A stretch of DNA of 64,000 nt from Candidatus Gottesmanbacteria bacterium RIFCSPHIGHO2_01_FULL_46_14 (GTDB taxonomy: Bacteria; Patescibacteriota; Microgenomatia; UBA10105; UBA927). This document shows, one piece after another, positions 17,276 to 28,863 of this stretch. The position numbers were made by a program, and so were the translations under genes. The first letter of the stretch is position 1, and each line of letters starts with the position of its first letter. The stretch spans positions 898 to 64,897 of the forward strand of contig MFJJ01000010.1 in assembly GCA_001780895.1 (NCBI GenBank), read 5' to 3'. The notes below the pieces were generated by a model that saw only the letters and a list, made by a program, of their open reading frames with translations, was not told the DNA's origin and did not search any database.

Positions 17276-17623
17276 TCACCGTTTTGATAGCAGGAGCTCA
17301 AGGGAGGTGAGGCAAGCAAGAAGCAAAATGAGATAGAGCGGTTCGCGAAGGTTGAGGATTTGAAGGACGAGGTAAGTCGTAAGCCCTAGGGATAAAAGAA
17401 CAGAACGTCGTACATTATTTAAGAGGTAGAGGAGTATCCAGAAACAAGAGACAAATAGTAATACAAAAAAAATACCAAACAAATGCCATGCATTGGGTTC
17501 GTAGCTATTAATAAACCACGCAAAGCCACTAAAACTTGTCAGTCCCAAAACCAACCACCAGATAGACCGCGGATGTTTCTCGTGACGCATATCGTGAGTC
17601 AATTGTAGCGGGGTAGATCCCAT
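17276..17623 (-). CDS. hypothetical membrane protein
   Basis: 115 aa with 3 TM helices. Confidence 0.3.
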   Translation of the reverse strand: MGSTPLQLTHDMRHEKHPRSIWWLVLGLTSFSGFAWFINSYEPNAWHLFGIFFVLLFVSCFWILLYLLNNVRRSVLLSLGLTTYLVLQILNLREPLYLILLLACLTSLELLLSKR

Positions 17624-17643
17624 GCTACAATATCAAAACTTCT

Positions 17644-18681
17644 ATGACACAAGATCTTCTCCTTATAATTTTTTCTATTCTTTTGGGATTTGGGGCACTT
17701 ATTTGGATTATCAGGCGCGAACTAGGCAAGCTTAGCGAGTCGAAGGATGATTCGACCTTAACAGAATGGCTCAAGTCGATGCAGATTTCGATTGAGCATA
17801 CCAATAAAACATTAAACGAAGCGATGCGCGGATCGACCAGTGACGTCGCAAAATTATTACAAGCAAATACGAAACAGCTCAACGAACGTTTGGATACGGC
17901 AGCCAACGTGATCGGCGATCTCAAAAAAAATTTGGGAGAAATGAGCGAAGTTGGCCGCGGTATCAAAAGCTTGCAGGAATTTCTTCAATCACCAAAACTT
18001 CGCGGCAACATCGGCGAACAGGTCTTGCAGGATATGATCGGACAGACGTTTCCGAAAAACTCGTTTCACCTCCAGTATTCTTTTAAGTCCGGCGTCAAAG
18101 TCGATGCCGTCCTCAAAACTGACGCAGGACTTCTCTGTATCGACTCGAAGTTTCCCATGGAAAACTTCAACGTGATGCATAAAGGAGAAACCGAAGCAGA
18201 TCGGGCACGTGCAAAGCGGGAATTTATGGCAGATGTCAAAAAGCACGTGAGCGATATTGCCAAGAAATATATATTGCCCGAAGAAGGCACGATGGATTTT
18301 GCGCTCATGTATATTCCCTCGGAAGGCGTCTACTACGAAATTGCCAACATGAATGAGCTCATGGAATTTGCTCGAAAGCAGCGGGTCTACCCCGTCTCCC
18401 CCAATACGCTCTACGCGCACCTTCAAGTTCTTCTTCTCAGTTTTCAGGGAAAAGATTTAGAACAAAAATCAAAACAGGTGTTTCAGCTGCTTCGCGCGAT
18501 ACAAAAAGATTACGGGAAGGTAGAAGAAAATCTCGGTGTTCTCGGCCGCCACGTCAATAACGCATATAACAGCATGAGTACGGTGACTTCAACATTCGGA
18601 CTTCTCGGCCAAAAACTCTCGCAAACCAACACGCTCGGAGACGGCAATGAAGAAGAAAGTCAGCTAAAAATAGAGGGATAA
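17644..18681 (+). CDS. rmuC: DNA recombination protein RmuC
   Basis: N-terminal TM helix, coiled-coil region, and a C-terminal RmuC nuclease-like region (GEQVLQDMIGQTFPKN...DAVLKTDAGLLCIDSKFP). Confidence 0.65.
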   Translation: MTQDLLLIIFSILLGFGALIWIIRRELGKLSESKDDSTLTEWLKSMQISIEHTNKTLNEAMRGSTSDVAKLLQANTKQLNERLDTAANVIGDLKKNLGEMSEVGRGIKSLQEFLQSPKLRGNIGEQVLQDMIGQTFPKNSFHLQYSFKSGVKVDAVLKTDAGLLCIDSKFPMENFNVMHKGETEADRARAKREFMADVKKHVSDIAKKYILPEEGTMDFALMYIPSEGVYYEIANMNELMEFARKQRVYPVSPNTLYAHLQVLLLSFQGKDLEQKSKQVFQLLRAIQKDYGKVEENLGVLGRHVNNAYNSMSTVTSTFGLLGQKLSQTNTLGDGNEEESQLKIEG

Positions 18682-18695
18682 CGATTCCGTTGGAT

Positions 18696-18725
18696 ATGTT
18701 ACTATGTTTCGAAACAAGATAACAT
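18696..18725. repeat. degenerate copy of the 30-bp palindrome ATGTTACTATGTTTCGAAACATAGTAACAT
   Basis: ATGTTACTATGTTTCGAAACAAGATAACAT has about 3 mismatches in the right arm. It sits 3 nt beyond the stop of the P-loop kinase gene. Confidence 0.7.
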
Positions 18726-18728
18726 GAA

Positions 18729-19244
18729 TCATCGGAAGTATTCGTGTATCCACGATTCAATCGACAATGATCCATCATAGGAAATGACATGCTCATCAGG
18801 TGTTGGAGGTTGAAAGTTATCTGCAACCTCGGTAAAATCTTCGTCTCGAACATCATATCGTTCTTTGGTTTGTCTATTGCTTTGCCAACGTTGTCTTGCG
18901 ACTGACTCGGGAATGTTTACATAAATAACTATTGAATCAGTTCCGACTTTTTCAGCTATAGCACGGAGTTTGTCTCTTTGTTCTCGCGTAAAATTAGCCG
19001 TATCGTTGATAACTGTTCTACCCTCACGTAAACGTAGTTCTGTTCGTTCATAAGAAATTCGGTATGTTTCTTTCCAATCCTCATTGGAAATTTCATCATT
19101 GCTGAGTTCTCTTAAACCTCGTTCACTATTGATTTCATCCAAATCTACGCGAACCCACCCGAAGTGCTTAACGAGTTCGTTGGCAAGAGTTGTCTTTCCT
19201 GCAAATGGTAAGCCGCAAAATATAAGAAGCACAGTCTCGTTCAT
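18729..19244 (-). CDS. P-loop kinase / AAA-type ATP-binding protein (zeta-toxin / polynucleotide-kinase-like fold)
   Basis: Walker A motif GLPFAGKTTLANEL. 171 aa with no other domain. Bracketed by 30-bp palindromes. Confidence 0.5.
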   Translation of the reverse strand: MNETVLLIFCGLPFAGKTTLANELVKHFGWVRVDLDEINSERGLRELSNDEISNEDWKETYRISYERTELRLREGRTVINDTANFTREQRDKLRAIAEKVGTDSIVIYVNIPESVARQRWQSNRQTKERYDVRDEDFTEVADNFQPPTPDEHVISYDGSLSIESWIHEYFR

Positions 19245-19250
19245 GAGATT

Positions 19251-19280
19251 ATGTTACTATGTTTCGAAACATAGTAACAT
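19251..19280. repeat. 30-bp perfect palindrome ATGTTACTATGTTTC|GAAACATAGTAACAT (putative operator, shared by divergent genes)
   Basis: Perfect 15+15 inverted repeat, 7 nt upstream of the kinase start and 17 nt upstream of the TrpR-like gene start. Confidence 0.8.
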
Positions 19281-19296
19281 AAGGCTGTAGGATTGT

Positions 19297-19737
19297 ATGA
19301 CGCAAATATCAAAATATCCTCTACGAAAAGAAATTGAGAATCGGATGCTTGAGGTTTTTCTTGATAGCATAGGGATGGTAAAAACCCGAGAACACGTCCA
19401 GAAACTCATTGATGATCTCTTCTCTCCTACCGAGCGCGTAATGCTCGCAAAACGCCTGTCTATAGCACTGTTGCTTCTTAAGAAATATGATCAGAGGACG
19501 GTAGCAAGAATACTCAACGTAAGCTTAGGAACGGTAAATAAAGTGAGCTTAGCGCTTCAGAAAGGAAATGGAGGGTATGAATTGGTCGTTAATTCTATAG
19601 TTCGACAGGAGAAATTTCACGCGTTTTTAGAGAAAATCGATGAAACACTCGTAGATATCGTTACCACGGGTCATTCTCTTCCTAATTGGCGTCGCGTGCG
19701 GTGGGAAACGAAAATCCGCAATCGAAAGCCTTACTAA
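19297..19737 (+). CDS. TrpR/YerC/YecD-like DNA-binding protein
   Basis: SPTERVMLAKRLSIALLL...QRTVARILNVSLGTVNKVS, a TrpR-like HTH of the YerC/YecD family. 146 aa. Confidence 0.55.
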   Translation: MTQISKYPLRKEIENRMLEVFLDSIGMVKTREHVQKLIDDLFSPTERVMLAKRLSIALLLLKKYDQRTVARILNVSLGTVNKVSLALQKGNGGYELVVNSIVRQEKFHAFLEKIDETLVDIVTTGHSLPNWRRVRWETKIRNRKPY

Positions 19738-19740
19738 CAC

Positions 19741-19770
19741 ATGTTACTATGTTTCGAAACATAGTAACAT
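19741..19770. repeat. 30-bp perfect palindrome, third copy
   Basis: Identical to 19251..19280. Starts 4 nt after the stop of the TrpR-like gene. Confidence 0.8.
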
Positions 19771-19825
19771 AAAAATGTAAAGCATAGGAAGATAAGTTTT
19801 TTTTGATGAATGCTATACTTAAGAT

Positions 19826-20113
19826 ATGGCAGATATTACCCAGATGTGTACGAAATGCGGGAAGAAATTTTTGATAATTAGTCAGGAACAGGAATTTCTT
19901 AAAAAGAAAAATTTGCCTCTTCCGACGCTATGCCCTTCAGATCGACAGGCAAGGCGTCTTGATGACCGCGGAGAACGAACGCTATATAAAACAACTTGTC
20001 AGGAATGTGGCGCGAACATGATTGCCTCGTATGATCCCGCAAAAGAGAAGAGTAAAATTTTTTGTAAAAATTGTTACCGGAAGTATTTCGAAACACACGA
20101 GTTGGTATCATGA
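19826..20113 (+). CDS. zinc-ribbon protein
   Basis: 95 aa with CTKC...CQEC...CKNC pairs. Its stop overlaps the ATG of the next gene (ATGA). Confidence 0.45.
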   Translation: MADITQMCTKCGKKFLIISQEQEFLKKKNLPLPTLCPSDRQARRLDDRGERTLYKTTCQECGANMIASYDPAKEKSKIFCKNCYRKYFETHELVS

Positions 20114-21006
20114 CAGCTGAAGAATTTTACTCTCAGTATCTCGTTCTCAAACATTCTCTTCCCCAGTCTGCTACGCATAGTCATAGCAACGAAAACTCAG
20201 AGTATGTAAGTTACAGTTACCGATGCAAGAATTGTTACTATTGCTTTGATTGTGTCGATTGTAGAAACTGTTTGTATTGTTTCGATTGCGTACGCAGTAA
20301 CGATTGTCTAGATGGTGATTATTGCGTTGAGTGCGAGCAACTCTACGAGTCTGTTGATGCATATCGCTGCTACAACAGTGCGTTTCTCAACTACTGTGCA
20401 CGGGTTTATGACAGCTATTTTTGTCGCAATTGTTTTGACAGTCACAATCTTTTCGGATGTGCCGATCTCAAGCAAAAACAATATTGCATTTTTAACAAGC
20501 AATATACAAAAGAAGAATACGAAAAACAGGTTATAGAGTTATTGAAAATCGTACCCAAAGAGCATCTGAAAAAATTGAATGAACTCGCGAGTCAACATCC
20601 TATTGGTCCGACGTACGTCTCGAACTCCGAAAACAGTGACTATGGCAATCAAGTGCACTACTGCACGAGCTGTTATCTTTGTTTCGACACTGCTCGAAGT
20701 AATGACTTAGCATATTCATACGATACGGCATACTGTACAAATTCAATGGATTTGACATACTGCTACAAAGCAGAACTCTGTTACGAGTGTACCGATAGTT
20801 CAAAGATTTATAACTGTGATTTTATCGAGTGGTCGAGCGAGTGCTTTGATAGCGCGTATTTAACCAATTGCAAAGATTGCCATAATTGTTTTGGCTGTGT
20901 AGAAGTTGCGCATAAACGGTTTTGTATTCTCAATAAGCAATATTCGCAAGAAGACTATAAAAAGGTAGTTAGCGAAATTGTGGTTTCTAGACAAGCGGTT
21001 CACTAA
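20110..21006 (+). CDS. Cys-rich tandem-duplicated protein (Cys every third residue: CxxCxxCFDCxxC...), unknown family
   Basis: About 33 Cys in about 298 aa. Two homologous modules of roughly 110 aa, each ending C(I)FNKQY(T/S)xE(E/D)YxK. Start trimmed to ATG 20110 (ORF track begins at 20071). Confidence 0.5.
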   Translation: MTAEEFYSQYLVLKHSLPQSATHSHSNENSEYVSYSYRCKNCYYCFDCVDCRNCLYCFDCVRSNDCLDGDYCVECEQLYESVDAYRCYNSAFLNYCARVYDSYFCRNCFDSHNLFGCADLKQKQYCIFNKQYTKEEYEKQVIELLKIVPKEHLKKLNELASQHPIGPTYVSNSENSDYGNQVHYCTSCYLCFDTARSNDLAYSYDTAYCTNSMDLTYCYKAELCYECTDSSKIYNCDFIEWSSECFDSAYLTNCKDCHNCFGCVEVAHKRFCILNKQYSQEDYKKVVSEIVVSRQAVH

Positions 21007-23173
21007 ATGCTTGTGCTTTTGCCTCAGCGACCGATGGTATGCCAGATTCTTCAAGCAGCCCAATCTCTTTTTCCACTTCAGATCTCGGACGTGCGAATCG
21101 CTCGCGGGACGTTCGCACGATATCGTTTGCAAGATCCTCGTCGGGTTTGGGGAAATTAAGCGTGCGGCCGGAAAACGGTGGAGCGGTTTGCCCATCGATC
21201 GTCATTTTTACGTAGAAATTTCGCATATCTAAATTGAGAAAATCTTTTGGCGAAAAGGTTGGCGTATATTCTTTTTCAAGAACTGCTGCGTCTTCGCCGC
21301 CGACGCGAAATGAAACAATACTTCCGATATTACCAAATATGGTGGAGCGGACTTCTTCCGGCAGTTGCATCATATACTGGTGCGCAACTGTGAGATTCAA
21401 GCGATATTTTCTGGCTTCCGAAAGAATATTCGAGAAAGCGCTTGTGGCGAAATTTTGAAACTCGTCGATATACAAGTAAGTATCTTTTCTGTCCTCTTCT
21501 GCTAAACTTGCCCGAGCAACCGCTGCTTGCCAAAGCTTGGTAATAAACATTGCACCCAGTAGCGCGCTATTTTCCTCGCCCAACTTTCCGATTGCAAAAT
21601 TGGCAATAAGAATTTTTTCGCCGTTTATGATTTCGTCGAGTTTAACAGAACTTTTTGTTTGACCAACAATATTTCTGATAATCGGGTTGGCGACAAATTG
21701 ACCGACTTTATTGATAATCGGCGTAATTGCTTCGCCGGCAAATTGCTCGTTCCACGACGAAAACTCCGTCGTCCAGAATTTTTTTACCAAGGGATCCTGA
21801 ATTTTGGCGATAATTTCCTGTCGATAGCGGATATCAGAAAGCATATTGGTAATGCCCAATACCGTTGCACCGGGAACATCAAGAAGTGCGAGCGTTGTGT
21901 AGCGAAGCACGTGTTCTAATCGTTGATTCCAGGTGAATGAAAATAACTTCTTAAATATTGCGATAAATCCAGCAACGACAGTTTGCTTAAACTCATACGT
22001 CCCTACTCCTTCGAGCGGATTGAAACTCATGGGGTAGTCAATATCAGAAGGATTAAAATACACAACGTCGTAGAGTCTCTCTCTGGGAATATAGCGAAGC
22101 ATTTCTTCGGAAAGATCGCCGTGCGGGTCCATGATGACGCAGCCTTTTCCCTGTCGAATATCAGCAAGAGCGAGAAGTTGGATGAGTTTACTTTTTCCGA
22201 CCCCAGTTTTTCCGATGATGTAGAGATGTTTTCTTCGATCTTCTCGCTTAATACCAAACTCCGTCGAAACTCCCCGAAAATTGGTGGTGGCAAAAGGAAT
22301 AATTGCGGGTTTGGTGGGCAAATTTATCGGCGGCTCGGCGGTTTTCGATTTGGCTACTGATACTTGCGCGATACCGGAGGAGGCTAGGGGCAAGTGATAC
22401 ATCGTTGCCAGTTCATCTCCTCCCAAAAGAAATGGTTTTGGCGAGGCGGTACGCTGCCGGAACGCATCGACTGCGCGGGGATTACTGCCACGCTTCCAGA
22501 TTTTGAGTGAGTTGAGATTTGGGTTATCGAGGATTTTAAAGAGTGCAGAAACTGATGAGGCGAGCAGTTCCGATTTTGTATCCGCGCTTGCCGCAATGCG
22601 AATTGTTGTCGAAAACAGCGATTTGTGCAATTTTTCTGTCTCCTTTTCCTGAAGTAGTTCCCGCATGGAAGAATTTTTCCTCATGCTTTGTCTCCATGAA
22701 GTGCGAAGCATTTCGCGAAATTTGAATGAAAGTGACTCATTGTTTACCGGGCTTACGATGACTTGAATGCCAATGAGGTCATTGCCGGAAATACTTGATG
22801 CCATTCCGGATAAAGCGGACAGAAAATCAGTTTCGAGTTCCTTATACGTTTTGATGGGATAGGCATCCGGCCGTTCTAATTTTAGGATTATCACGTGTGA
22901 CGAAAGAGAGAGCGAGCCGGTGTAGTCGGTAACCTCAACGATTTCGAGCGTTGGATACTGGGAAAATAACTGTCCGCGGACGATATCGACGTTGCTTCGT
23001 TCGGTGACGACAAAAAAATACAAGAATCCGCCGCGCACCACAATCTCAAATGAGAGTGTGGCGGGGTGATGGCGAAAAAGTTCGGAAAGCCCTGTAAATA
23101 TGGCCTCCGCTGCCACCGGCCCCCGGTCATTTTCCCTGGGGACTTTAAGATGCAGGACAACAGGCGCGTTCAT
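20987..23173 (-). CDS. TraD/VirD4/HerA-FtsK superfamily P-loop ATPase with about 300-aa N-terminal domain
   Basis: Walker A IIGKTGVGKSKL, then the CVIMDPHGDL motif typical of coupling-protein/DUF87-like ATPases, then a Walker B-like LYIDEFQNF. 728 aa. Confidence 0.5.
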   Translation of the reverse strand: MNAPVVLHLKVPRENDRGPVAAEAIFTGLSELFRHHPATLSFEIVVRGGFLYFFVVTERSNVDIVRGQLFSQYPTLEIVEVTDYTGSLSLSSHVIILKLERPDAYPIKTYKELETDFLSALSGMASSISGNDLIGIQVIVSPVNNESLSFKFREMLRTSWRQSMRKNSSMRELLQEKETEKLHKSLFSTTIRIAASADTKSELLASSVSALFKILDNPNLNSLKIWKRGSNPRAVDAFRQRTASPKPFLLGGDELATMYHLPLASSGIAQVSVAKSKTAEPPINLPTKPAIIPFATTNFRGVSTEFGIKREDRRKHLYIIGKTGVGKSKLIQLLALADIRQGKGCVIMDPHGDLSEEMLRYIPRERLYDVVYFNPSDIDYPMSFNPLEGVGTYEFKQTVVAGFIAIFKKLFSFTWNQRLEHVLRYTTLALLDVPGATVLGITNMLSDIRYRQEIIAKIQDPLVKKFWTTEFSSWNEQFAGEAITPIINKVGQFVANPIIRNIVGQTKSSVKLDEIINGEKILIANFAIGKLGEENSALLGAMFITKLWQAAVARASLAEEDRKDTYLYIDEFQNFATSAFSNILSEARKYRLNLTVAHQYMMQLPEEVRSTIFGNIGSIVSFRVGGEDAAVLEKEYTPTFSPKDFLNLDMRNFYVKMTIDGQTAPPFSGRTLNFPKPDEDLANDIVRTSRERFARPRSEVEKEIGLLEESGIPSVAEAKAQAFSEPLV

Positions 23174-25056: not shown

Positions 25057-27942
25057 GTGAAAAAGACTTCCGAAGAGCGTATATTAAACCAGGAGCAAAG
25101 ACAAGCCGTTGAACATGGCGATGGACCGTTGTTGATTGTCGCAGGTGCCGGAACAGGAAAGACAACAGTTGTAACTGAACGCATCAAGCATCTTATTACA
25201 TCTGGAAAAGCTAATCCTCAAGAGATTTTAGGTCTCACGTTTACGGAAAAGGCTGCCCGCGAAATGGAAGAGCGGGTAGACATTGCTCTTCCGTATGGCA
25301 CAACGCAAATGTGGATCTCCACGTTTCACTCATTTTGCGATCGGATTCTTAAAAATGAATCGATTAATATTGGCCTTGATCCGGGATTTACGCTCATGAC
25401 CGAAGCCGAGACGATTATTTTTTTCCGTAAGAATCTCTTCAAATTTGACCTCAAATACTTCCGTCCGCTGGGAAATCCTACCAAGTTTATTGCAGGGATG
25501 ATACAGCATTTTTCAAGACTCAAGGATGAAGATATTAATCCCAAGCAGTATCTAGAATGGGCTAAGACCCAAGTTGGAGAAGAAGGAGAAAGATATCAGG
25601 AATTGGCCGATGCTTATCGATCCTATGAAGAAGTCAAAGTAAAAGAAGGGGTTGCTGATTACTCAGATCTTATTAGTAATACGTTAAAAATATTCAGACT
25701 TCGGAAAAATATTCTCAAACGGTATCAAGAGCAATTTAAATACATTCTGATCGACGAGTTTCAGGATACGAATTTTGCGCAAAATGAACTCGCTATTCTT
25801 CTTGCGGGTCAGCGGAAAAACATTACCGTCGTCGGAGATGATGATCAGGCAATTTATCGTTGGCGTGGGGCGGCGATAAGTAACATTATTCAGTTCAGGA
25901 GTCATTTTCATAAAACGGCAATCGTCGTGCTTACGAAAAATTACCGTTCCACAAAAGAAATACTTGACCGATCGTATGCCCTCATTCAATTGAACAATCC
26001 TGATCGATTGGAAGTGGTTGAAAAGATAGATAAAAAATTGGAAAGCATGAGGAGAACAAACGGGCAACCCATAGAGGTTTTATATGAACAACGGGTCGAG
26101 AACGAAGCCGATGAAGTGGCAAAATCTATTCAGAATTTGAAACTCGAAATGAAAAACGAGTGGAAAAATTATGCGATTTTAGTCAGAGCCAATGTCCATG
26201 CAGAGCCATTTGTCAGAGCGCTTTCGCGACTGGGAATTCCGTATCAATTTTTAGGTCCGGGTCAACTGTTTCGACAGCCGGAAGTAAAAGATCTCATTGC
26301 CTATCTTAACGTCCTTGCTAACTATGAAGACAATGTTGCTATGTATCGGGTGTTGACGATGGATGATATCGGAATTAGTGATCGTGACGTCGCGGTACTT
26401 ATTAATTACGCAAAGAAATTCGGAACATCACTTTTTGAAGCGTGTGAGCAGCTCTCAAGGTCCAGCCACTCTCAAGGCTCGGCCTTAAAGTACCCCAAGG
26501 CCGAGCCTTTTATGGGGCTTGCAAATCTGGTAGCAATGATTACTCGGCACCTGGGACGTATCAAAAAAGAGACGGCCGGACAAATTCTGTATTATTTCCT
26601 CCAAGATACCGGACTGTTACAAAAACTTGGAACGTATAAAACGCCAAGAGACGAGAGGATTGCGACCAATATTGCCAAGTTTTTCAATAAACTTAAAACC
26701 TATGAAGCGGAACACGACGACGCAAGTGTGTATGCGGTTGTTGACTGGATCGATATGGCCATGAAGTTAGGTGAGTCGCCGCTAGCGACCGATACGGATT
26801 GGTCCGGCAATAATGCAGTCAACATTCTCACGATTCACTCATCCAAGGGACTTGAATTTTCCGTTGTGTATCTGGTTAATCTCGTGTCTCAGAGATTTCC
26901 GACGACCCAGCGACGGGAGCAAATTCCGATCCCAGATGCACTTGTCAAAGAGATTTTGCCAAGTGGAGATTTTCATACAGAAGAAGAACGGCGACTTTTT
27001 TATGTAGGGATGACGCGCGCTCGTGATCATTTATTTTTCACTGCGGCTAAATACTATGGCGAAGGCAAGCGGGAGAAAAAGATTTCACCCTTCGTCATTG
27101 ACGCATTAGGAGAATTACCAAGCGTAAAGATACCAAGTGAACAAAAACAACTCACGCTCCTGGATTGGGAGAAGAAAGAAGAGTCAGCAGTTTCAATAGT
27201 CAGGCAACCAATTGATTATGTCTCCTATTCGCAGCTTGATACTTTTAAAACCTGTCCGCTCCAGTATAAGTATCGCTATATTCTTAAAATTCCGGTGCCA
27301 CCGTCAGCCGCTCTTACGTTTGGCGACAGCATGCATCGGACGATGCGCGCATTTTATGAGCTTGTGCAACAGGGAAATGTCCCTACAAAGGATACACTCC
27401 TTCGACTTCTCGACGATCATTGGATTTCATTGGGATATGGGCAGCGTTCGTACGAAGAAAAAATGAAAGTGCACGGGAGGGAATTACTTGCAGAATTTTT
27501 TGAGAAAGGATATGAACCGGGGAAAATTCCAAAGAGTCTAGAGGAGCCATTCAGGATAAAAATTACACCGTTTCTTAAGCTCGGCGGGAAAATCGATCGC
27601 GTTGATGAACTGCCCGACGGAACTATTGAGATTATTGATTACAAAACCGGCCAAGCACCGAAAAACCGCGATGTGAGGGCAGATTCGCAATTAACTGCAT
27701 ACGCACTCGCTGCGACAGACGAGGGAATATACAATAAATCTCCCGAACACGTTATTGTTTCGTTTTACTTTTTTGAAGGACAGGAAAAAATTTTTGCTTC
27801 GCGAACCCGTGCGCAATTGGCAGAGGCGATACAACATATTACCAAAACTGCTGACGAAATCTCGCGAAGTGACTTTAAGCCGACTCCCGGAAAGCATTGT
27901 GATTTTTGTGAGTTTCGCCTCATCTGTGAGGCGTGGCAGTAA
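25057..27942 (+). CDS. UvrD/PcrA-family helicase fused to a C-terminal PD-(D/E)xK nuclease domain with a Cys cluster (AddA/Cas4-like)
   Basis: GTG start. Helicase motifs AGAGTGKT, DEFQDTN, VGDDDQAIYRWRGA and the KNYRST motif. C-terminus has YSQL...C...IDRVDEL...IIDYKTG...CDFCEF..C. Confidence 0.75.
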   Translation: MKKTSEERILNQEQRQAVEHGDGPLLIVAGAGTGKTTVVTERIKHLITSGKANPQEILGLTFTEKAAREMEERVDIALPYGTTQMWISTFHSFCDRILKNESINIGLDPGFTLMTEAETIIFFRKNLFKFDLKYFRPLGNPTKFIAGMIQHFSRLKDEDINPKQYLEWAKTQVGEEGERYQELADAYRSYEEVKVKEGVADYSDLISNTLKIFRLRKNILKRYQEQFKYILIDEFQDTNFAQNELAILLAGQRKNITVVGDDDQAIYRWRGAAISNIIQFRSHFHKTAIVVLTKNYRSTKEILDRSYALIQLNNPDRLEVVEKIDKKLESMRRTNGQPIEVLYEQRVENEADEVAKSIQNLKLEMKNEWKNYAILVRANVHAEPFVRALSRLGIPYQFLGPGQLFRQPEVKDLIAYLNVLANYEDNVAMYRVLTMDDIGISDRDVAVLINYAKKFGTSLFEACEQLSRSSHSQGSALKYPKAEPFMGLANLVAMITRHLGRIKKETAGQILYYFLQDTGLLQKLGTYKTPRDERIATNIAKFFNKLKTYEAEHDDASVYAVVDWIDMAMKLGESPLATDTDWSGNNAVNILTIHSSKGLEFSVVYLVNLVSQRFPTTQRREQIPIPDALVKEILPSGDFHTEEERRLFYVGMTRARDHLFFTAAKYYGEGKREKKISPFVIDALGELPSVKIPSEQKQLTLLDWEKKEESAVSIVRQPIDYVSYSQLDTFKTCPLQYKYRYILKIPVPPSAALTFGDSMHRTMRAFYELVQQGNVPTKDTLLRLLDDHWISLGYGQRSYEEKMKVHGRELLAEFFEKGYEPGKIPKSLEEPFRIKITPFLKLGGKIDRVDELPDGTIEIIDYKTGQAPKNRDVRADSQLTAYALAATDEGIYNKSPEHVIVSFYFFEGQEKIFASRTRAQLAEAIQHITKTADEISRSDFKPTPGKHCDFCEFRLICEAWQ

Positions 27943-27946
27943 TTGG

Positions 27947-28210
27947 ATGTATAATATACCCATGAGTGATAATAATCGGCCATATTTTTTGTGGGATTAT
28001 GATTTGACCGAAGAGGATATTCGGAGGATTTTGCGTGGGGAAAACCGTACGGATAGAATTTGGATTCTATCGCGGATTCTGGAAAGCGCACGGTTTGAAG
28101 ATGTATGGCGATATACGACGCTTTCCGAAGTACGAGAAATGTTTCCCGTATTAAAACTCAAGCAACCCATCCGACAGGCTTGGGAACACGCGTTACACGT
28201 ATGGCAATAA
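27947..28210 (+). CDS. hypothetical small protein, possible partner of the AbiEii-family gene
   Basis: 88 aa. Its stop overlaps the start of the next gene by 10 nt. Confidence 0.3.
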   Translation: MYNIPMSDNNRPYFLWDYDLTEEDIRRILRGENRTDRIWILSRILESARFEDVWRYTTLSEVREMFPVLKLKQPIRQAWEHALHVWQ

Positions 28211-28863
28211 ATTATCATTTACAAGATCAATTTTTAGACAAGTTTTTCATGAGCCAGTTCGGGCCGGATTTTTATTTGACCGGCGGGACAGCGCTTGCGC
28301 GATTTTACTTTCACCATCGAGAAAGCATTGACCTGGATTTGTTTACCCAGAATAAAAACACAGACTTTGCTGTATTGAATTTGTTCGTGGAAAAAATCGG
28401 TTTAGCGATAGGACTCAAGACGGTCAAACAGGTGGTTACAAATGCGTTTTTGCAGTATATCTTTGAAGATATTTCCGGTGAAGGCCTGAAGGTAGATATT
28501 GTCAAAGACATTCCGGTGCATTTCGGAGAGTTTAAGCAGGAAGGTATGATAAGGGTAGACTCTCTAGAAAATATCGGAACTAATAAAGTATTAGCTATTT
28601 TTGGAAGGACAGATCACAAAGATTTCATTGATTTGTACTATATCCTTCACCAAACACAATTAACTTTTGATTACCTCGTTTCACTTGCTAAACAAAAAGA
28701 CGTGGGGCTTACGGAGTTTTATCTTGCCAACTCCATCGATCAGCTTCAAACCGCTACCCAGATGCCAGCACTCCTCAGGCCATTAGATGTTGACGTATAC
28801 AAAGCATTTTATAAGCAGATATCAGAAAAGATGCTCTCGAAGCTTAAACCGGAGGACACGTGA
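28201..28863 (+). CDS. AbiEii/DUF1814 family nucleotidyltransferase (abortive-infection / type IV TA toxin family)
   Basis: FYLTGGTALARFYFHHRESIDLDLF N-terminal signature. About 220 aa. Confidence 0.5.
   Translation: MAINYHLQDQFLDKFFMSQFGPDFYLTGGTALARFYFHHRESIDLDLFTQNKNTDFAVLNLFVEKIGLAIGLKTVKQVVTNAFLQYIFEDISGEGLKVDIVKDIPVHFGEFKQEGMIRVDSLENIGTNKVLAIFGRTDHKDFIDLYYILHQTQLTFDYLVSLAKQKDVGLTEFYLANSIDQLQTATQMPALLRPLDVDVYKAFYKQISEKMLSKLKPEDT

Follow-up and report, generated by a model that had tools for sequence, protein, structure and literature searches.

Copies of a palindrome bracket a TrpR-like regulator gene in many Microgenomates and are predicted to be its operators

Why should the gene for a small TrpR-like regulator carry one copy of a palindrome at its start codon and another at its stop codon? 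The question is raised by a 64-kb stretch of DNA from Candidatus Gottesmanbacteria bacterium RIFCSPHIGHO2_01_FULL_46_14 (contig MFJJ01000010.1), analysed as a whole and referred to below as the window, in which a 30-bp palindrome (a 28-bp core plus 1 nt at each end) lies beside two divergent genes, one for a P-loop kinase and one for a TrpR/HisR(YerC)-like repressor. The 30-mer, ATGTTACTATGTTTCGAAACATAGTAACAT, is present in perfect form at 19251-19280 (28-bp core at 19252-19279) and at 19741-19770, and a third, degenerate copy at 18696-18725, ATGTTACTATGTTTCGAAACAAGATAACAT, has 3 mismatches to it. These are the positions given in a preliminary description of the same sequence, and the number of matches to the 30-mer expected by chance is 0.00 (100 shuffles). 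The placement of the copies near start and stop codons was likewise recovered as described. The central copy occupies most of the 52-bp gap between the ATG of the kinase (19244, minus strand) and that of the regulator (19297, plus strand), the downstream copy begins 3 nt past the regulator stop codon (19737) and ends 55 nt before the ATG (19826) of a zinc-finger gene, and the third copy lies between two convergent stop codons, 14 nt past that of an RmuC gene (18681) and 3 nt from that of the kinase (18729). Neither a search that allowed 8 mismatches in the 28-bp core nor one with a family-level pattern turned up any other copy in the window. A common genome-wide repeat of the repetitive extragenic palindromic (REP) type, which the preliminary description had named as a finding that would speak against its proposals, was rejected within the 64 kb, where even the relaxed family pattern gave no extra copies.

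The preliminary description had proposed looking for the palindrome in related genomes, and there the copies that flank the regulator recur. A metagenome scan with alignment of regulator homologues yielded 80 loci at 37-100% identity. In a set of 76 non-redundant loci, an upstream palindrome, ending 0-36 nt before the start codon, was present in 65 of 72 evaluable loci, and a downstream palindrome, as a rule 0-10 nt past the stop codon but overlapping it in some loci, in 59 of 69; both were present in 53 of 65 evaluable non-redundant loci, down to a regulator identity of ~37%. Such palindromes have a background frequency of 1.2e-4 per position, which puts the expectation at 0.03 for each locus. 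The bracket is kept in P0097, the most distant of the homologues checked (39% identity over 74% of the query), where the palindrome runs into the stop codon. Centre to centre, the two copies are 473-554 bp apart. The regulator family comprises 231 clusters at 50% identity (E<=1e-10), with proteins typically of 145-152 aa, and its named members come from Gottesman-, Levy-, Shapiro- and Curtissbacteria (Microgenomates). To judge from these comparisons, the conserved bracket belongs to the regulator gene and the kinase is no part of it. The earlier statement that each of the two genes is delimited like a cassette is accordingly to be shifted to the regulator, bracketed in the 53 loci; the kinase lies beside the regulator only in the window and in locus L023 among the ~80 loci. 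As a separate observation, locus L100 (1109-2094) carries two regulator paralogues in tandem, in the order site, regulator, site, regulator, site.

A DNA search with the 20-mer TGTTACTATGTTTCGAAACA retrieved 21 stretches from about a dozen other metagenome-assembled genomes (MAGs), in which the full 28-bp palindrome is kept; each genome holds the exact 20-mer in 1-4 contigs or loci. A TrpR-like gene lies beside the site in 3 of these 21 loci and is flanked on both sides in two of them, L002 and L019. Several of the records are titled Gammaproteobacteria, labels that look unreliable because L021, one of their number, encodes an RmuC with 80% and a regulator with 59% identity to those of the window. 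Another site-bearing stretch, L003, comes from a MAG titled Paceibacterota. The 20-mer was absent from the viral contigs searched, and a phage origin of the palindrome was rejected on this ground.

Both identities proposed in the preliminary description, P-loop kinase and TrpR-type regulator, were confirmed by Pfam. The regulator (19297-19737, plus strand, 146 aa) matches Trp_repressor, PF01371, over residues 18-99 with 50.6 bits (cut-off 27; E=2.1e-13). With NCBIfam yecD_yerC (TIGR02531, an equivalog of ~90-105 aa) it scores 34.6 bits, and since this is below the cut-off of 42.2 it is regarded as a distinct subfamily rather than as YerC/YecD itself. An AlphaFold2 model (pLDDT 78.7) has 8 helices in an all-helical TrpR fold with a helix-turn-helix (HTH), the helices at 11-103 forming the TrpR core and the HTH recognition helix falling at about residues 76-89 (VSLGTVNKVS). 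The best PDB matches found by Foldseek were the YerC-like structures 3KOR, 3FRW and 3G1C (TM normalised to target 0.74-0.81), then E. coli TrpR, with 1TRR also among the fold matches. A C-terminal extension of ~45 aa is specific to the subfamily, and the model shows there two extra helices absent from YerC/TrpR structures. In a manual alignment, Ser43, Arg53, Thr79 and Lys82 seem to be the counterparts of the residues of the TrpR pocket.

Several observations point to binding of the palindrome by this protein. The palindrome itself varies strongly by lineage, with TGTTACCATGTTTCGAAACATGGTAACA, TGTTATCATGTTCTAGAACATGATAACA, TGCTACCATGATTCGAATCATGGTAGCA, CACTTTAATGATATATATCATTAAAGTG and ATATAAAATGATTTGAATCATTTTATAT as examples, and the upstream and downstream copies differ by a mean of 2.1 nt within a locus against 9.6 nt between loci, a contrast attained in 0 of 10000 permutations. 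The recognition helices VSLGTVNKVS, VGLETVSKVS, VSYGTVNRVG, VTPPTIASVS and VSLPTVSGVS each pair with one palindrome class. The regulator of the window is 100% identical to A2875_03085 of a Candidatus Gottesmanbacteria MAG (GCA_001779345.1), whose contig MFJW01000002.1 and the window show no difference in the 2.4 kb compared, and the same assembly encodes a paralogue, A2875_04925, that is bracketed by a class of its own, AATTAAAATGATTTGAATCATTTTATAT, and not by the TGTTAC class. The paralogue lies on MFJW01000011.1 (L107, 3975-4993) inside a glycosyltransferase/polysaccharide cluster, in the order site, regulator, site, GNAT, site, GT2, with the palindrome class given there as AAAATGATTTGAATCATTTT. 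Across the family the invariant positions of the palindrome are T4, A8-T9-G10 and T12 together with their mirror images. The half-site is a direct repeat with a period of 8 bp (TGnT-N4-TGnT), with 61% self-identity at offset 8 against 31% expected (z ~19), so that each palindrome contains four TGnT units, two direct and two inverted; this arrangement fits two dimers bound in tandem. The inner TGTTTC/GAAACA also resembles the half-sites of the chromosomal centromere parS, whose near-universal consensus is TGTTNCACGTGAAACA. A parS-like centromere was rejected, the palindrome having no central ACGT and reading ATGATTCGAATCAT, ATGATATATATCAT and others in other lineages; no ParB gene was seen among the genes adjacent to the locus.

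The upstream copy stands where an operator would be expected. In 16 of 73 loci the upstream copy is preceded, at a distance of 2 nt, by a perfect TTGACA; none of the downstream copies has one beside it, in either direction. In these 16 loci the inner arm reads TATCAT 17 nt further on, inside the palindrome, and the ATG follows 0-19 nt past the palindrome, most often within 8 nt. In the window, a TAACAT at 19275-19280 (plus strand) faces the regulator and is followed by a 16-nt stretch with AGGA and then by the regulator ATG, while a second TAACAT at 19256-19251 (minus strand) is followed by 6 nt and the kinase ATG, a leaderless geometry; in this lineage the outer arm TAACAT is the likely -10 element, which would make the central copy an operator over two divergent core promoters. 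A gap of ~7 nt between palindrome and start codon recurs at unrelated genes in other genomes. Shine-Dalgarno (SD)-like 4-mers were present at -16 to -5 in 6 of 62 long ATG-started open reading frames (ORFs) of the window, and TAnnnT hexamers were enriched 3-8 nt before ATGs, so that short or absent leaders seem to be normal in this host. In 16 lineages the operator is thus predicted to overlap the regulator's own promoter (TTGACA/TATCAT/ATG), and it appears to do so more weakly in that of the window. Taken together, the conserved bracket, the co-variation with the recognition helix, the paralogue-specific classes and the promoter overlap at the upstream copy strongly support the palindrome as the cognate operator of the regulator encoded at 19297-19737, one of the roles that the preliminary description had suggested.

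The copies that follow stop codons call for a different explanation. The preliminary description had also suggested bidirectional terminators, and as terminators of the intrinsic type these were rejected: no T-run follows the downstream copies (3.1 T per 10 nt, equal to background) and hence no U-tract, the stem is AT-rich, and a terminator scan called none in 18400-20200. A protein roadblock or an RNA 3' hairpin at the downstream copies is possible; as RNA, the downstream copy would form a hairpin of -16 kcal/mol, and the hairpins of the palindromes are stable, at -16 to -17 kcal/mol with z = -4.5 to -6.4 relative to shuffled sequences. The copy is kept in 36 of 40 loci with a co-directional next gene and in 13 of 15 with a convergent one, and because it is present whatever the orientation of the neighbour, control of the following gene cannot be its whole role. 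It may also serve as the operator of a tandem next gene, and in the window the zinc-finger gene may be an additional target of the copy at 19741-19770, which is otherwise predicted to be an operator copy without a promoter. Copies are also found 3' of genes other than the regulator, namely the kinase of the window, the L108 kinase, a two-gene HAD operon in L007 and a DHFR-like gene in L034. Since the 3' copies have neither a -35 element nor a T-run, are kept independently of orientation, follow non-regulator genes too and show no helical phasing, a boundary function, as a roadblock or insulator that would prevent read-through from circumventing autoregulation, is the role favoured for them. 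The third copy of the window has a history of its own to suggest. Its right arm (18716-18725) reads ACAAGATAACA instead of ACATAGTAACA, which breaks the family-conserved T21, and the same arm recurs in the regulator-downstream copies of L023 (4149-4176), L031 (2227-2254) and L045 (1461-1488), the next 5 nt, TGAAT, matching between the window and L023; the third copy may have descended from an ancestral downstream copy.

The third copy also forms the left edge of a segment that differs between strains. The preliminary description had proposed comparing strains for the presence of the bracketed segment, and two metagenomic contigs with an identical regulator, L114 and L115, were found to carry RmuC, one perfect palindrome and the regulator and to be without exactly 555 bp (18717-19271 in the window), that is, without the kinase and one palindrome copy. 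Their flanks are 100% identical to the window on the right and 99.8% on the left. The breakpoint, 18716/18717, is inside the palindrome, and because of the repeat the edges can be placed anywhere in the shared 21 nt. The kinase (18729-19244, minus strand, 171 aa), which diverges from the central palindrome, is thus an accessory gene. It is AAA_33/KTI12-like (Pfam AAA_33, E=1.5e-23), its best NCBIfam match being a weak one to the Pnkp kinase domain (32.5 bits). A tblastn search of ~100 loci found it in the window and L023 only, together with a homologue of 33% identity ~250 bp from the L004 site, and the homologues in L109-L111 are without a site; the kinase as a conserved partner of the regulator was accordingly dismissed. 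In L023, where the regulator is 75% identical to that of the window, the kinase is divergent from it as well, and because L023 has the same divergent pair, loss of the kinase by recombination between direct copies is the simpler reading of the indel. Homologues of ~50% identity occur in Ktedonobacter and other Chloroflexota, mostly in unrelated contexts without sites. The L108 kinase, 80% identical and in a different context, has a perfect palindrome 4 nt past its stop codon, at which the contig ends. A second indel, of a GNAT gene and one palindrome, was found at the paralogue locus, where it is present in L105 and L091 and absent from L078, L093 and L088, a pattern that does not follow regulator similarity. 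The suggestion that the palindromes are cassette or recombination boundaries was therefore upheld in part: the kinase and GNAT indels have their breakpoints in the palindrome, and no recombinase is implicated. Recombination or slippage between direct copies is enough to explain both.

These observations are probably best brought together as an autorepressor whose operator lies at the start of its own gene, with the 3' copies as roadblocks or insulators and with indels arising between the operator repeats. Two dimers would bind each palindrome in tandem, as in E. coli TrpR. Since the upstream (central) copy overlaps the core promoter, the regulator would repress its own gene, and from the central copy of the window it would repress the divergent kinase as well. 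The 3' copies (19741-19770 and 18696-18725) would be bound by the same regulator and would act mainly as roadblocks or insulators; in a compact genome poor in terminators, they would keep transcription from running into the autoregulated unit or out of it. Direct repetition of the operator allows a gene between two copies to be lost (or gained) precisely, as is seen in the sister strains that lack exactly the kinase and one palindrome. Several points weigh against this account. The whole case is one of comparative inference, and the correlation of helix with palindrome class is confounded with phylogeny. The -35/-10 elements in the window's own lineage are weak (TGTTAC/TAACAT), and a promoter scan called no sigma-70 promoter at the central palindrome of the window, so that a promoter there is argued by analogy with other lineages. 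Of the ~21 sites that the DNA search retrieved, about 3 are placed between convergent genes and 2 within coding regions, which is unusual for a plain promoter operator, and the genes adjacent to sites are heterogeneous (HAD hydrolases, Ham1, Mur ligase, cupins, DHFR-like, membrane proteins and unknowns). The downstream copy might, in roughly three quarters of the loci, simply serve a co-directional gene that follows it as operator. The spacing of the two copies is without helical phasing (Rayleigh p ~0.7 at 10.5 bp), and so lends no support to looping.

Looping between the two copies is nonetheless the main alternative for the role of the 3' copy, and it differs from the roadblock account in that role only. 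A repressor oligomer, tetramerised through the C-terminal extension, would bridge the copies that flank the ~490-bp gene, loop the gene out and so tighten autorepression. This is possible but doubtful. It would suit a bracket conserved whatever the orientation of the neighbours, with both copies kept as the same variant, and it would give a use to the two additional helices of the subfamily, which YerC/TrpR structures lack; the narrow range of spacing also fits, but it follows trivially from gene length, phasing is missing, and 3' copies of the same kind are found behind genes other than the regulator (the kinases of the window and of L108, the HAD operon in L007). If, alternatively, the palindromes acted mainly in RNA, their hairpins ending or stabilising transcripts that arrive from either side and the link to the regulator being secondary, the stability of the hairpin, its position 0-8 nt past stop codons in most loci and also between convergent genes, and the lack of any other terminator-like feature in the region would all be accounted for. 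A search against Rfam gave no known RNA family at E<=1 in 17500-21000. The absence of a U-tract, the AT-rich stems and the empty terminator scan nevertheless make such a role distinctly improbable, as does the consideration that a pure hairpin needs no palindromic loop, no identity with the promoter copy and no co-variation with an HTH recognition helix; moreover, upstream copies would be largely untranscribed if the inferred promoters are right.

Two further explanations were considered. The palindromes could be the boundaries of mobile cassettes or REP-like elements moved by dedicated recombination, with the TrpR-like protein as a DNA-binding partner. Both precise indels of a gene plus one palindrome, the palindrome kept past the stop codon of the L108 kinase in its unrelated context, the change of bracketed gene from genome to genome (DHFR-like in L034, an HAD pair in L007, a second regulator in L100) and the occurrence of sites in all types of intergenic region would follow from this. 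Yet no integrase or transposase was found among the genes within ~5 kb or called in the few related loci with gene tables, the regulator is a plain HTH protein with no catalytic domain, and deletion between 28-bp direct repeats needs no special machinery. The copy number is also low, with 3 in 64 kb, all at the regulator, 1-4 exact-20-mer loci per genome, and usually only the two flanking copies in related loci that hold ~8 kb. RmuC-regulator synteny is stable over 19 loci, and the regulator itself is for this reason not mobile. Dedicated mobility is on these grounds improbable. Another proposal, rather unlikely though it is, takes the operator as portable punctuation, with a promoter/operator facing one way, a transcriptional stop facing the other and a recombination boundary in the same 28 bp, so that accessory genes might be gained and lost as units of gene plus palindrome and fall under the repressor's regulon on arrival. 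The preliminary description, for its part, had seen in the kinase and regulator a possible toxin/regulator pair. In such a toxin-antitoxin or defence pair, a zeta- or Vak-like kinase would be the toxin and the DNA-binding protein its antitoxin or regulator. The two divergent genes do share one palindromic control region, and the kinase weakly matches Zeta_toxin (19.6 bits) and the PADLOC model VakA (21.9 bits), but the former is under its cut-off of 22.3 and the regulator has no PADLOC match, a result on which a defence system was also rejected. Only in the window and L023 do the two genes occur together, close strains keep the regulator without the kinase, and the regulator family stands independently with many different neighbours. 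Kinase homologues of 65-69% identity have unrelated surroundings in which no regulator gene was called; the contig of the 80% homologue, L108, ends at the palindrome. Such a pair is very unlikely, and this part of the preliminary description is not supported.

The autorepressor has its closest described relative in HisR (= YerC), a histidine repressor with 20-bp palindromic operators, cacTTTA-N6-TAAAgtg, upstream of genes for his biosynthesis or transport, that is often autoregulated (Ashniev et al. 2022, PMC9413887). The regulator studied here shares with the HisR/TrpR family the fold, Pfam PF01371, lineage-specific palindromic operators and autoregulation, as predicted here, through a site upstream of the regulator gene, and one of the palindrome classes has HisR arms, CACTTTA-N14-TAAAGTG, with N14 in place of the N6 spacing of HisR. 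It differs in length (~146 aa, with the two extra C-terminal helices, against <100-108 aa), in its 28-bp operator against 20 bp, in the second, promoter-less copy at the stop codon, no bracket being described in the HisR paper (PMC9413887), and in its hosts, which are Microgenomates (Patescibacteria). Neither the neighbours nor the ~25 site-adjacent genes inspected included a histidine or tryptophan gene. A literature search on YerC, TrpR and regulators of Patescibacteria/candidate phyla radiation (CPR) bacteria returned the HisR paper and no description of the family or of the bracket. The system may be described as an autorepressor of the TrpR/HisR kind that is set apart by a longer protein, a 28-bp operator of four units and a bracket around its own gene.

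Other systems are similar in single features. E. coli TrpR binds in tandem with an 8-bp offset, which the 8-bp internal period of the palindrome recalls. In the immunity region of phage lambda, the cI gene lies between the operators OR and OL, which CI octamers loop together, the proximal operator serving autoregulation and the distal one adding cooperativity; lac O1-O2 is another example of dual-operator looping. Here, too, a repressor gene lies between its own (predicted) operators, but there is one 28-bp site per side, ~490 bp apart and abutting start and stop codons, with no lytic/lysogenic switch, no evidence of looping or helical phasing, and a chromosomal housekeeping locus in place of a prophage. 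In REP/RAYT (REP-associated tyrosine transposase) systems, a Y1 (HUH) transposase-like gene is flanked by REPs, of which a genome has tens to hundreds. A single-copy gene flanked by palindromes, further intergenic copies and the co-variation of palindromes with the gene are common to both, whereas the present protein has an HTH repressor fold (TrpR), the copies are few per genome and the upstream one lies in a predicted promoter of canonical type. Integrons consist of the tyrosine recombinase IntI and an attI site beside cassettes bounded by attC sites, which are bulged hairpins. As in integrons, single promoter-proximal genes are delimited by perfect or imperfect palindromes and strains differ by a gene plus one palindrome; in contrast to them, no integrase was found nearby, the perfect 28-mers are identical to the predicted repressor operator, at most two or three units occur and in either orientation, and the indels are explained by direct-repeat recombination. 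DNA-bound regulators that act as roadblocks include CcpA, CodY and LacI in bacteria and Reb1 in yeast. The role proposed for the 3' copies, that of a bound protein halting RNA polymerase at a gene boundary, would be of this kind, although bacterial roadblocks are usually single sites inside operons and not a bracket around the regulator's own gene.

To our knowledge, almost nothing is known about transcriptional regulation in CPR bacteria, most of which cannot be grown in culture. A family-wide pairing of repressor subfamily and operator, with about ten natural specificity classes and with paralogues that are apparently orthogonal in one genome, would be useful for regulon reconstruction and as a source of natural orthogonal parts. 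A conserved bracket in which the regulator's own gene has an operator at its start codon and another at its stop codon lies outside the textbook picture of autoregulation, and suggests a way in which an autoregulated gene could be insulated in very compact genomes with few SD motifs and terminators. The kinase and GNAT indels show in addition that repeated operators can shape accessory gene content. Were the punctuation proposal to hold, genome-reduced Patescibacteria would possess a recombinase-free, operator-bounded cassette system, whose cargo would be the kinase here and, in other loci, GNAT and DHFR-like genes.

Beyond the regulator's own gene, the exact 20-mer often lies 5-9 nt before the starts of unrelated genes, including those for HAD, Ham1, Mur ligase and cupin proteins. 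No coherent regulon function emerged from the site-adjacent genes, which are heterogeneous; a theme of nucleic-acid repair or nucleotide metabolism (RmuC, Fpg, Ham1, the PNK-like kinase and a protein with two HxT/S motifs) is an impression only and is not claimed. The last of these, a conserved 224-aa protein with no Pfam match, is encoded 7 nt past a TGTTAC-class palindrome both in L003 (2008-2682, Paceibacterota) and in L015 (6673-7347, Gottesmanbacteria). Its motifs, HISF and HTTV, suggest a 2H phosphoesterase, and it is a candidate for a conserved regulon member. In L005 (1370-1397) and L006 (6768-6795) the 28-mer is found within the coding sequence of unrelated methyltransferase-type genes, where it encodes LLCFETLEH.

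The surroundings of the locus are housekeeping genes (MetRS, TatD, RmuC and an AddA-like helicase-nuclease), and the locus is not within an obvious mobile element. RmuC (17644-18681, plus strand; Pfam RmuC, E=2e-50) is the conserved neighbour upstream of the regulator, found there in the 19 related loci of stable synteny. The zinc-finger gene downstream of the second palindrome (19826-20113, plus strand; Pfam zf_Tbcl and zf_Tbcl_2) is also the downstream neighbour in L024; family-wide, this neighbour varies widely. The L022 contig, 100% identical to the window across the regulator, diverges inside zf_Tbcl from its position 827 (window ~20061) and represents a structural variant. In L023 (2476-2522 and 4230-4281) a 47-nt piece of the zf_Tbcl 5' end comes right after the RmuC stop codon, and an intact zf_Tbcl follows the regulator; the fragment seems to be the trace of an earlier rearrangement in this region. 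A GNAT-like gene of 175 aa adjoins the kinase in L023, which has no third palindrome. Directly after the downstream palindrome of the regulator, L025, L028, L029, L038, L042 and L043 have a Ser_hydrolase gene, which in the window is separated from that palindrome by ~3.3 kb (19826-23173) containing zf_Tbcl, a Cys-rich 311-aa ORF without a family match and a VirD4/TraG-like ATPase gene on the minus strand; the Ser_hydrolase gene of the window (start 23221) is preceded by TGCTATAAT and then 7 nt before its ATG. Further along the window are the AddA-like UvrD helicase/PD-(D/E)XK nuclease gene (25057-27942) and a gene for a homologue of AbiEii-type nucleotidyltransferase toxins (28105-28863).

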